From NCBI GenBank assembly GCA_900234795.1, contig LT962688.1:3180001-3212000 (forward strand): 32,000 bases of DNA. Reading direction: 5' to 3'. Numbering within the stretch: position 1 is the first letter of the stretch; every line of letters begins with the position of its first letter. A program made the position numbers and the translations under genes. The notes under the pieces are model-generated. The model worked only from the letters and a program-made list of their open reading frames with translations. It did no database searches and had not been told where the DNA came from. The DNA is from Methylorubrum extorquens. GTDB lineage: Bacteria > Pseudomonadota > Alphaproteobacteria > Rhizobiales > Beijerinckiaceae. Positions 2,688-32,000 of this stretch are shown in pieces.

Positions 2688-5600
2688 TCACTTCATCGGC
2701 AGCGTCGGATCACCGAAGCGCTTGGCGAGGAAGAGGATGTCGTCCTCGCTCTTCGCCTGCTCCACCAAGCTGCCCTTGGCCTCGTCGAAGAACCACGTGT
2801 CGTATTTCGACGGGTTGGAGGCCGGCCGGCTGGCGCCGCGCAGGATGATGTCGCCGCCCTCGATGGAACGGATCACCTCGTTGGCCAGCACCGGCTTATG
2901 GGCGATCGCCTCGATCGTGGCCGGGCGACCGGCGACCGAGGTCGGCGTCAGGGTGTTGGCCGCCGTCGCCGAGAAGGACGGCAGGGTCACCCCGGCATCG
3001 AACGACCAGATCGCCCGCTTCTTATGGAAGCCGATGACCTTGATGCCGCTGTCGCCTTCGCTGACCTGATCCGCGCCGGTCTGCGCCCCCTGCGGAACCC
3101 CGTATTGCGGCGCTGCAGCGTTGGGTCCGAACGGGTTCGCAGCGGAAGCGCCGTAGGTCTGCATGTAGGTCGCCAGCGACGAGGCCCCCCATTTCCCGGC
3201 GACGGCGACGCCGTAGTGGAAGTTGACGAACTGCGTTCCGACGCCGGCCGTGTTGATCACACCGATGCTGTTGGGGAACATCATCGGCGTGAAGCTGCCC
3301 TGCAGCATCCCGAGATTGGTCGGCAGCAGCACCGTGAACGAGTTCGGCCCGACCATCCGGCCGTCGGCATCGACCGTCGGCACCAGCGTCGCCTTCGCCC
3401 CGAAGATCCGGTTGTTGCCCGCGCCGCCCGCGATGACGTCCTCACCCGCCTTGATTGCGCCGGCATAGACTCCGGAGGCCGGCGGTGCCGCGTCAGGAAC
3501 GCCGAGGATGAAGCGGATATCGAACAGCACGCTCTGCAGATCGAACCGGGCATCCCGCGGAGCCCCGATCCAGCCGCGATAGGCCGCGGTCAGATTCTGC
3601 TGGCCGCCGAAGCCGAACGGGCTCCGCCAAGCGAGGCCGCCATAGAGCGGGTTGCGCCAGCTGACGACGCTCCCGGCCAAGGCGTCCCAGGCCGAGCGGT
3701 TCCAGGCATCGAGATCCCCCTCGATGCCGGTCGCACCGGCGCCGAGCACGCGGGCTTCGACCTGAGCACGATCCTCGGCGAGGGTCGCGGCCGTCGCGCG
3801 CTGGCTCTGCGTCGCATTGGCCGCCGGCAACTGGATGAAGCCGGTATCGCCGATCAGCAGATCGTTTCCGTCGCCGCCATCGATCCGGTCGTTGCCGGTC
3901 AGGAAGCTGTCGCCACGGGAGGCAATGGTGACGATCCAGTGGAGGGCCACCGACTTCAGATCGACCGGGTAGTCCACCGCGAGATGCTGCTGCATCGCGG
4001 AGAACCGCTCGCCGGCGCGGGTGAACACAGCTGCCTCGACCTGGGCCGCCTGGGACGCGGTCGCCGGATCGTGGACCGCGAGGCCGCGCGCCACGCCGGG
4101 CTGGAATAGGACGAGGGTGTCGCCGACCGCGAGGTCGTCGCCCGCGCCCCCTTCGATGATATCGTTGCCGATCGACACCACGTGGTTCGCGCCCATCCCC
4201 TCCGGCAGGCCGTAGGCGAGGATCTCGTTCAGCGGCCGTTGCGCCATCGCCTCCAGCTTCGCCGTCACCGCGGCCTGCGCGACCCGGCCCGTCATGGCGA
4301 GGTCGGTGATGACCGAGCGCATGTCGGAGAGGGCGTCGCTGAGCGCCAGGGCCGCCTCGACCGACAGGCTGCGCAGCGGCCCCGAGCCCTGCACGATGGT
4401 GCGGGCGGCATCGCCGACGATGAAATCGTCGCCCTCGCCGCCAATGATGTGATCGTTGCCGTAGGTGATCGTCCGGCTCGGCCCGCCCTGCAGCAGGTCG
4501 ACGCCGCGGCTGAGCGTAGCGAAGACGCCGAGCAGATCGGAGGCCGAGGCCGACACCTTGTCGATCTGACCGTTGAGCGCGGCGTAGGCCGTCACGTCGA
4601 GCGTGTAGGTCTCGCTGCTATCCCCGTAGATCGTGTCGTTGCCCGCGCCGCCGTCGATGACCTCGTTGCCCGCCAGCACGTTGTTGGTGCCGTAGAGGCT
4701 CGGAACCAGCGAGGCGGTGACGGTGACGATCGCGCCGTCGCTGCGCCGGATCGGATCGGACCCGGCGATGTCGGAGACGACGCCCGCCATCGAGGGATAG
4801 ACCTCGATCCGCGGCGCACCGGCGCCGAACGCGCCGGGCACGAGGTTGAGGGCGGGCACCACGACCTCGCCGCCGAGCGGCAGCACGAGGCCGGTCTCCG
4901 CCGCGGCACCGATCAGCCGGATGGCGTTGACGATGGTCGGCCGGTCGGAGGCGGTCTCCGACAGGTTCGAGGCGCGGTCGCCGTAGATCAGGTCGTCGCC
5001 GGCATCGCCGATCAGCTTGTCGTTGCCGCGCTGGCCGAACAGCACGTCGTTGCCGTCGCCGCCGGCGATGATGTCGTCGTCGGCCCTGGCCAGCGAGACG
5101 GTCAGCGCGGAGGTCGCCCAGGCTCCCCCCGCCGTGGTCAGGCGCGTGCCCGACCCGTCACGGGCGCCCACGGCGAGGACGAGGTCCGCCTGCGCCAGCT
5201 TCTCGGCAAGGTCGGCGGTGCGTGCGGCGGCCGATTGCGCGTCGGTGGCGATGGCGGCCGTGACGGTGCCGATCTCCTCCAGCACCACGTCGCGGTGCCA
5301 GGTGCCGTCGCTGTTGAGAACCGCGGCGCTGTCCTTGGTGAAGGCGCGGACGATCCGGCCCTCGTCACCGAGGAGATAATCGACATCGGTGCCGCCATCG
5401 ATCCTGTCGCGGCCGAGGCCGCCCACGATCTCGTCGGACCCTTCCTCACCGTAGATGAGGTCGTCGCCCATCTGACCGAAGATCCGGTCATCACCCGCGC
5501 CGCCGGCAATCGCGTCGTTGCCGCCGACAAAGTCGATGAGGTCGAAGCGCAGCACGTCGCGCATCACCGTGTCGGCGAAAGCGCCGGGATTGCGCTGCCA

Positions 5601-32000: not shown

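Follow-up and report, generated by a model that had tools for sequence, protein, structure and literature searches.

We analysed a stretch of 32,000 nucleotides from Methylorubrum extorquens (assembly GCA_900234795.1, contig LT962688.1, positions 3,180,001 to 3,212,000), referred to below as the window, most of which is occupied by the 3′ part of one giant gene on the minus strand (2688..32000; 29.3 kb). Frame 0 of this strand is free of stops from 32000 to 2691, that is, over 9,770 codons, and closes with a TGA at 2690..2688. The first in-frame start in the list of open reading frames (ORFs) is a GTG at 31967, which would give a product of 9,759 amino acids (aa); no stop separates this GTG from the window edge. 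The window has a G+C content of 68.6%, base composition predicts one stop per 49 codons, and the natural logarithm of the probability (ln P) of reading 9,770 codons without a stop is -203. By comparison, 221 and 101 stops occur over the same stretch in the two remaining frames of the minus strand. The G+C content of the giant ORF by codon position is 64/51/91% (GC3 90.6%), as expected of genuine coding sequence at high genomic G+C content. The longest DNA repeats within the ORF measure 1.5 kb and are 87-89% identical, and at this degree of identity, repeat collapse during assembly does not appear to be an obvious risk. The plus strand also holds a long ORF (8862-20660; 3,933 codons without a stop), which lies in a frame with just 9 stops over 29.3 kb. 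Because the G+C content of this ORF reaches 92% at the first codon position (GC1), in a mirror pattern, we consider it a shadow of the real frame. Such an antisense shadow ORF could be taken for a gene by gene callers.

To follow the gene beyond the window, we scanned species-representative genomes using the first 300 visible residues of the giant protein as a query. The scan retrieved Methylorubrum rhodesianum DSM 5687 (L002), Methylobacterium sp. NPDC097213 (L003), and a metagenome-assembled genome (MAG; L001), together with more distant matches in M. podarium and M. aminovorans. Along the first 10.9 kb of the window ORF, L001, L002, and L003 align with ~94% nucleotide identity and almost without gaps. 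Further upstream, the next 10,381 nt (3,460 codons) of L002 and of L003, as far as the edge of each locus, are likewise free of stops in this frame. Together with the 9,770 codons of the window, this gives a gene of at least 13,230 codons (39.7 kb), while its full length is probably about 47 kb. The upstream extension called for by the first-pass annotation, an earlier reading made from the letters of the window, was thus carried out through relatives, with the start lying still further upstream. It confirmed that the GTG at 31967 is internal and that the true N terminus and the promoter are located outside the window. The ratio of nonsynonymous to synonymous substitution rates (dN/dS) was about 0.17 in each of the three comparisons (L001, L002, and L003; 3,633 aligned codons), and the aligned codons contained no indels and no stops in any of the three genomes, which indicates purifying selection on the reading frame. 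The frame is also intact throughout L001-L005. Thus, the open codons, the codon-position pattern, and the dN/dS value bear out the proposal of a single giant gene. At the protein level, P0001 and P0152 represent near-identical or close orthologous fragments and P0151 a weak match; a metagenome scan with the most upstream nonrepetitive 400 aa of L002 returned no match.

The window gene is most probably META1_2412 of M. extorquens AM1 or its ortholog, as matched by genus, size, and domain content. META1_2412 has been described as a 47.5-kb gene for a giant calcium-binding protein of 15,831 aa and unknown function, with a repeat-rich product annotated with PF00353, PF05594, COG3210, and COG2931 (PMC2680597, Vuilleumier et al. 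2009). The two genes come from the same genus group; each is a single repeat-rich giant combining PF00353 RTX repeats with repeats of the “hemagglutinin/large exoprotein” type, and a product of 15,831 aa is compatible with the at least 13,230 codons of the window gene. They differ in PF05594, which was annotated in 2009, whereas current Pfam gives none in the scanned parts of the window gene. A later resequencing paper reported a point mutation, L8004F, in the AM1 giant gene, which was still listed as hypothetical (PMC3926354). If the two proteins are assumed to be equally long, the corresponding residue of the window protein (8004 minus 6,061) is an Ala, which speaks, if anything, against the window being AM1 itself. 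The existence and the size of the gene are therefore not new, as it has been in the literature as a hypothetical gene since 2009 and its family has already been named by NCBI. For comparison, later work has described predicted bacterial proteins as long as 85,804 aa (bioRxiv 10.1101/2023.11.21.568195).

These data also bear on the possibility of a relic gene, decaying or unexpressed, or of a repeat-assembly artefact, with a frame that stays open only because of high G+C content. Such an explanation could draw on the 2009 paper, which left expression open (PMC2680597), on the location of the AM1 gene in a strain-specific genomic island, and on the antisense frame, whose 3,933 stop-free codons demonstrate that long by-product ORFs do arise in this composition. 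We consider it very improbable, given the ln P of the open frame, the G+C peak at the third codon position (91%), which in the shadow frame falls at the first (92%), the low dN/dS with zero indels over 10.9 kb in three independent assemblies, the intact frame in all five loci, and internal repeats that are at most 89% identical.

The visible product has a mass of 975 kDa, in agreement with the very large protein that had been anticipated, a pI of 4.24, and a single Cys residue among its 9,770 aa. Acidity and a near-absence of Cys are usual for proteins exported unfolded, such as the substrates of type I and type V secretion systems (T1SS and T5SS). We scanned the visible protein against Pfam in pieces of 5,000, 977, and 300 aa; because absence on 5,000-aa chunks is not evidence of absence, the 300-aa rescans were used. 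HemolysinCabind was the sole Pfam family found at all three piece sizes. Roughly 4,700 visible residues have neither a Pfam family nor a relative among PDB sequences, and the first 4,700 visible residues are without any sequence relative in PDB. Module borders were drawn from self-comparison of the protein and from BLASTP mapping onto 152 relatives, which divided it into modules M1 to M10. For giant queries or targets, phmmer and hmmscan proved to miss genuine matches: the complete homolog H1, described below, was lost at the Forward filter despite a BLASTP E value of 2e-78. H1 was also left out of the alignment behind one structure prediction.

The N-terminal part of the visible protein (M1, aa 1-560; 30321..32000, minus strand) is the end of an LktA-type array of 53-residue filamentous repeats. 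The NF012206 model (LktA_tand_53) matches five stretches in the window with 67.3 bits against a cut-off of 50, and the same repeats fill the upstream 3,460 residues of L002 (132-180 bits, E 5e-39 to 4e-54), where no Pfam match was found. We infer that the LktA-type array forms a beta-helical shaft. An N-part with an autotransporter/hemagglutinin-like beta-helix had been proposed; the hemagglutinin-like part of this description holds loosely, through the LktA_tand_53 repeats, while the autotransporter part does not. Indeed, across 13,230 aa (window plus 10 kb upstream), there was no autotransporter, ESPR, TPS, Haemagg_act, or Fil_haemagg Pfam match at E<=1, including PF05594 and PF05860, and the sole autotransporter-related match in 300-aa pieces was AIDA with E 0.27. 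A classical autotransporter (type Va) was rejected, as the C-terminal 1,070 aa gave no match to the PF03797 beta-barrel translocator. The 53-residue tandem repeat (NF012206) is the one that also builds the N-part of the LktA-family filamentous adhesins, the leukotoxin family of Fusobacterium necrophorum; in contrast to the window protein, these show no RTX C-part and no central module. LktA-family proteins are ~3,000 aa long and are secreted with a TpsB-like partner.

The repeats lead into a conserved central module (M2, aa 561-2450; 24651..30320, minus strand) with no Pfam family, whose best-kept core spans approximately aa 1007-1987. An exhaustive HMMER search with aa 978-2167 against 1.84 billion cluster representatives identified this module in 527 protein clusters at E<=1e-3, 146 of them at E<=1e-30; most of the 527 are fragments or proteins of 2,000-7,400 aa. 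AlphaFold2 modelling of the same residues (window 25500-29069, minus strand; alignment of 58 sequences) gave a mean pLDDT of 79.5 and a pTM of 0.66, with 490 residues at or above 90. The model predicts a helical hairpin followed by a ~800-residue beta-rich body and then by helical repeats. Foldseek found no PDB or BFVD match to it at E<=1e-3 (best PDB match 0.087, TM score at most 0.17); the UpaB beta-helix appeared just at E 1.7, and there was nothing convincing in BFVD. Thus, among PDB and BFVD, this is a widespread conserved module without a described family or a solved fold.

Downstream of the central module, M3 (aa 2451-2750; 23751..24650, minus strand) contains, on reading of the translation, about three repeats of ~90-107 aa, with the best self-shift at 106-107 aa, and is poorly kept among relatives, with only 6 BLAST matches. 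M4 (aa 2751-3250; 22251..23750, minus strand) is a repeat-rich conserved module defined by collinear BLASTP matches; it was matched in 76 of the 152 relatives and follows the central module in nearly all. M5 (aa 3251-3780; 20661..22250, minus strand) consists of G/D/T-rich repeats of ~45 aa with a higher-order period of 139 aa (self-shift peaks at 45 and 139 aa) and loose GxGxD motifs. It is largely lineage-specific, being matched in 2 relatives, and carries the first loose RTX-like motifs at aa 3288. M6 (aa 3781-4140; 19581..20660, minus strand) shows weak RTX-like motifs with a subthreshold PF00353 match (E 0.004) and is the best-kept module in the RTX-bearing relatives (35-51% identity). 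M7 (aa 4141-4620; 18141..19580, minus strand) is a run of Ig-like beta-sandwiches according to its AlphaFold2 model and Foldseek, and M8 (aa 4621-4800; 17601..18140, minus strand) is a conserved linker into the RTX array, where the first significant PF00353 matches occur.

The first-pass annotation had also assigned Calx-beta-like modules to the protein. We found no match to PF03160 (Calx-beta) at E<=10 in 300-aa pieces covering aa 2401-5085, and an M7 profile built from eight family members recovered no Calx-beta protein among PDB sequences. The AlphaFold2 model of M7 is an all-beta chain of Ig-like sandwiches with a pLDDT of 59.5 (70-86 in the middle). In Foldseek, this model matched leg domains of integrin alpha chains best (E 2e-8), and a tandem Calx-beta structure, NCX1 CBD12, was also detected (E 4.6e-5, TM score 0.45 by target, root mean square deviation 7.2 Å). 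In a model of such confidence, integrin legs and other Ig-like folds outscore NCX1 CBD12. Membership in the PF03160 family was therefore not supported, and what is left of this assignment is at most a likeness of fold in a medium-confidence model. A reading of M7 as Ig-like sandwiches, possibly Calx-beta-like at the level of the fold, is tenable.

The largest visible module, M9 (aa 4801-8700; 5901..17600, minus strand), is an array of ~68 tandem RTX-like units of 57-58 aa (171-174 nt) matched by PF00353. Each unit comprises two to three nonapeptide-like motifs and an insert of ~25 aa; self-shift peaks revealed higher-order repeats of 114-115 and 172-174 aa, and the DNA repeat families of M9 are spaced by 171, 345, and 522 nt. 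In the visible protein as a whole, PF00353 scored 703.6 bits in 37 stretches, and 76 GGxGxD cores lie between aa 3455 and aa 9375, with motifs spaced by 57-58 aa. The C-part therefore carries the tandem GGxGxDxUx repeats (PF00353) that define an RTX protein, and it is similar to the RTX block of CyaA (7usl_C, E 1.6e-17). The RTX C-part that had been predicted was thus confirmed. The array is followed by M10 (aa 8701-9770; 2691..5900, minus strand), in which RTX motifs (PF00353) are interrupted by inserts of ~70-150 aa before a unique stretch of the last ~270 aa. In the BLASTP module mapping, aa 9500-9770 had no family relative beyond close orthologs, the only match being P0152 with 86% identity. 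The end of M10 is the candidate position of a C-terminal secretion signal.

RTX repeats similar to the RTX domain of CyaA, along with weak partial matches to NF033943 (“RTX family hemolysin”), raise the question of whether the protein could be a pore-forming RTX cytolysin or a MARTX-type toxin. However, NF033943 scored 66 bits against a cut-off of 1,000, and in the repeat part only. There is no hydrophobic pore-forming region, as just 2 Kyte-Doolittle windows exceed 1.9, both within Ala/Val repeats. Furthermore, no acyltransferase gene was found nearby, and the Pfam scans revealed no MARTX effector or CPD domains. We thus regard a toxin of either kind as hardly probable at all.

The architecture described above had been considered an uncommon chimera. 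This did not hold, as the same module order recurs in H1 and at least 10 other protein clusters. BLASTP module mapping showed the order M1-M2-M4 in essentially all long members of the family, and a subset continues collinearly with M6, M7, M8, RTX units, and M10a (H1, P0002, P0026, P0039, P0046, P0060, P0061, P0062, P0088, and P0116). H1 (WP_205793450.1) is a complete protein of 10,603 aa, encoded by a 31.8-kb gene on the plasmid NZ_CP049813.1 of Pontibrevibacter nitratireducens. Its RefSeq name is “LEPR-XLL domain-containing protein,” and its N terminus matches NF012209 (“LEPR-8K”). This alphaproteobacterial protein and the window protein are collinear from M1 through the RTX units, sharing M1, M2, M4, M5, M6, M7, M8, and the units themselves at 27-47% identity, which places the window protein alongside a full-length LEPR-XLL protein. 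The two differ at the C terminus, where H1 has a hydrophobic segment and a basic tail that are absent from the window protein, and in an operon downstream of H1 that is absent downstream of the window gene.

This operon (L008 35531-42880 / L010 15225-23046) encodes a DUF3467 protein, a 618-aa HlyD-like membrane fusion protein (MFP), an HExxH intramembrane protease, a SecA paralog, and a second MFP, with no ABC transporter and no TolC among its genes. The SecA paralog, annotated as “DEAD/DEAH box helicase,” matches SecA models with E 2e-175, and the HExxH protease is annotated as “PqqD family.” The operon may constitute a dedicated, undescribed export system for LEPR-XLL giants. Among relatives with intact N termini, 10 have a basic stretch with LEPR-XLL, 3 have N termini resembling those of two-partner secretion (TPS), and 1 has a Sec signal peptide. 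The occurrence of these N termini on the same core indicates that the core has been combined with different export signals. As a separate observation, a 33%-identical relative in a Planctomycetota MAG (CAWATZ010000014.1, L006) is located at 10001-10876, outside both long ORFs of the locus (1353-7649 and 11749-20874), a position that points to a split gene or to frameshifts in the MAG.

One of the TPS-like relatives is H2 of Thalassospira marina (pCSC3H3; 8,765 aa), which has a ShlB/FhaC gene adjacent to it. H2 shares with the window protein the central module (25-27% identity) and M4, and both are fibrous exoproteins. The presence of the central module in this bona fide TpsA, and the two further relatives with TPS-like N termini, would fit a window protein that is itself a TpsA/FHA/CdiA-like two-partner-secretion exoprotein, with its TPS domain outside the window, a TpsB partner, and an effector or toxin in the last ~270 aa. 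The same could be said of PF05594 and COG3210 in the 2009 annotation (PMC2680597), and of a C-terminal stretch that has relatives only among close orthologs. Yet H2 contains M2 and M4 only and lacks the RTX part, whereas H1, which is the sole complete homolog inspected that is collinear through the RTX units, has a LEPR-XLL N terminus and no TpsB. No Fil_haemagg or Haemagg_act match was obtained in the 13,230 aa scanned, and neither a TPS domain nor a TpsB was seen for the window gene in the parts covered. Moreover, there is no small immunity-like ORF past the stop, and the C terminus, being 86% kept in another genome, is not hypervariable. We thus judge a TpsA-type exoprotein unlikely, and a polymorphic-toxin interpretation of its C terminus ranks low.

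Based on these results, we propose that the window quite probably contains the 3′ two-thirds of one intact, selectively maintained giant Methylorubrum gene, whose product is an acidic, almost Cys-free, repeat-built extracellular fibre. From the N to the C terminus, such a fibre would consist of the LktA-type array, the ~1,900-aa central module, further repeat modules, a short Ig-like run, the ~68 RTX-like units, and a lineage-specific C terminus. The chain would be exported unfolded, either by a C-terminal type I (RTX) signal or by an N-terminal LEPR-XLL signal as in H1, these being the candidate routes. Outside the cell, the RTX-like units would bind Ca2+ and fold into a rigid beta-roll rod, and this Ca2+-driven folding would both help to pull the chain out and stiffen it. 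The protein would then remain at the cell surface or in its vicinity and act as a spacer fibre or an adhesin. Its most likely role, once exported, is that of a surface fibre or adhesin stiffened by calcium. Both the folding driven by Ca2+ and the adhesin function are proposed by analogy with the RTX adhesins LapA and MpIBP and with Chlorobium chlorochromatii, which has giant hemagglutinin-like Ca2+-binding proteins (bioRxiv 10.64898/2026.03.19.712371).

LapA of Pseudomonas fluorescens, MpIBP of Marinomonas primoryensis, and SiiE resemble the window protein in being megadalton-sized, acidic, and Cys-poor with C-terminal RTX repeats, and a Ca2+-rigidified surface fibre would likely be the common role. 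In contrast to these proteins, in which a long bacterial Ig-like extender is joined to a short canonical RTX block, the window protein has an extender made of LktA-type repeats and ~68 atypical 57-aa RTX-like units. Likewise, no T1SS genes (within the 2.7 kb downstream) and no retention module were seen for the window gene. Pfam scans of the window protein detected none of the Big/Ig families, and one Ig-like stretch of ~480 aa was modelled.

Several points weigh against the proposal of an exported surface fibre. A long tandem array of bacterial Ig extender domains of the LapA/MpIBP type was rejected, as the protein has few Ig-like sandwiches. Neither a known signal nor a known domain is recognisable in its last 270 aa, and the 2.7 kb downstream of the gene encode no ABC transporter, MFP, TolC, TpsB, or SecA paralog. 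The gene start lies beyond the ends of all loci covered, including L002 and L003, as do the 5′ neighbours. Finally, the equation with META1_2412 follows from organism, size, and domain description rather than from sequence comparison, and the 2009 paper on META1_2412 writes “if expressed,” leaving its expression open (PMC2680597).

A broader hypothesis, which we offer tentatively and with considerably less confidence than the surface fibre itself, is that giant extracellular fibres with a collinear core of LktA-type repeats, the ~1,900-aa central module, and M4 make up a superfamily not yet described, in which this core is joined to at least three different N-terminal export signals. Its LEPR-XLL/RTX branch, including the Methylorubrum gene, might be exported by a dedicated, as yet uncharacterised machine of SecA paralog, MFPs, and intramembrane metalloprotease, and not by a classical type I system. 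The window gene is among the larger bacterial genes, taking up nearly 1% of the Methylorubrum chromosome (5.5 Mb in AM1), and its host is a model methylotroph and plant-leaf coloniser. New in this analysis are the purifying selection, the widespread family with a fixed module order, the ~4,700 residues without Pfam or PDB relatives, and a confident model of the central module that has no PDB match. The family is thus a reasonable target for structural work and surface biology; its main leads are the central module, which awaits characterisation, and, in the LEPR-XLL branch, a possible export system of its own.

The remainder of the window, downstream of the giant gene, contains a hairpin and three genes on the minus strand. 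The hairpin (2618..2657) was identified by folding 31 nt past the stop; it has a perfect G+C-rich stem of 17 bp and no U-tract, and in its 111-nt context the folding energy is -62.8 kcal/mol (z = -4.6). A consensus promoter/terminator scan of 1-3200 called nothing, the hairpin included. It is possibly a terminator or a 3′-end stabiliser. The hairpin is followed by genes for a WelO5-like 2-oxoglutarate (2OG)-Fe(II) oxygenase with an HxD (hydroxylase-type) motif (1694..2518; PF22814, E 3.7e-55), a class I S-adenosylmethionine (SAM) methyltransferase (898..1719; PF08241 and others, NF045667), and a B12-binding radical SAM enzyme whose gene is cut off by the window edge after its 5′ part (1..759; L007 gene calls, NF033712, TIGR04367). 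An exact-sequence look-up of the WelO5-like protein found none on record. For the methyltransferase, the only identical copy on record is encoded on the 3.8-kb Logan contig L007 (1-3823), where the radical SAM gene is followed by a second B12-binding one. The four genes could serve, as a cassette, to modify the giant protein, or could form a biosynthetic cluster unrelated to it.

The oxygenase, the methyltransferase, and the first radical SAM gene also adjoin the 3′ end of the giant gene in a MAG contig (JAGTAM010000081.1, L011; 5009-7666, 88% nucleotide identity), which ends inside the first radical SAM gene. On this contig, the homology to the giant gene has a sharp boundary at L011 2717 (window 4822), before which (L011 1-2717) lie A+T-rich DNA and a gene for an AraC-type regulator; a 709-aa “gene” has been called at the junction. 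Either the MAG contig is chimeric at this point, or the 3′ end of the giant gene is present here as a truncated copy.

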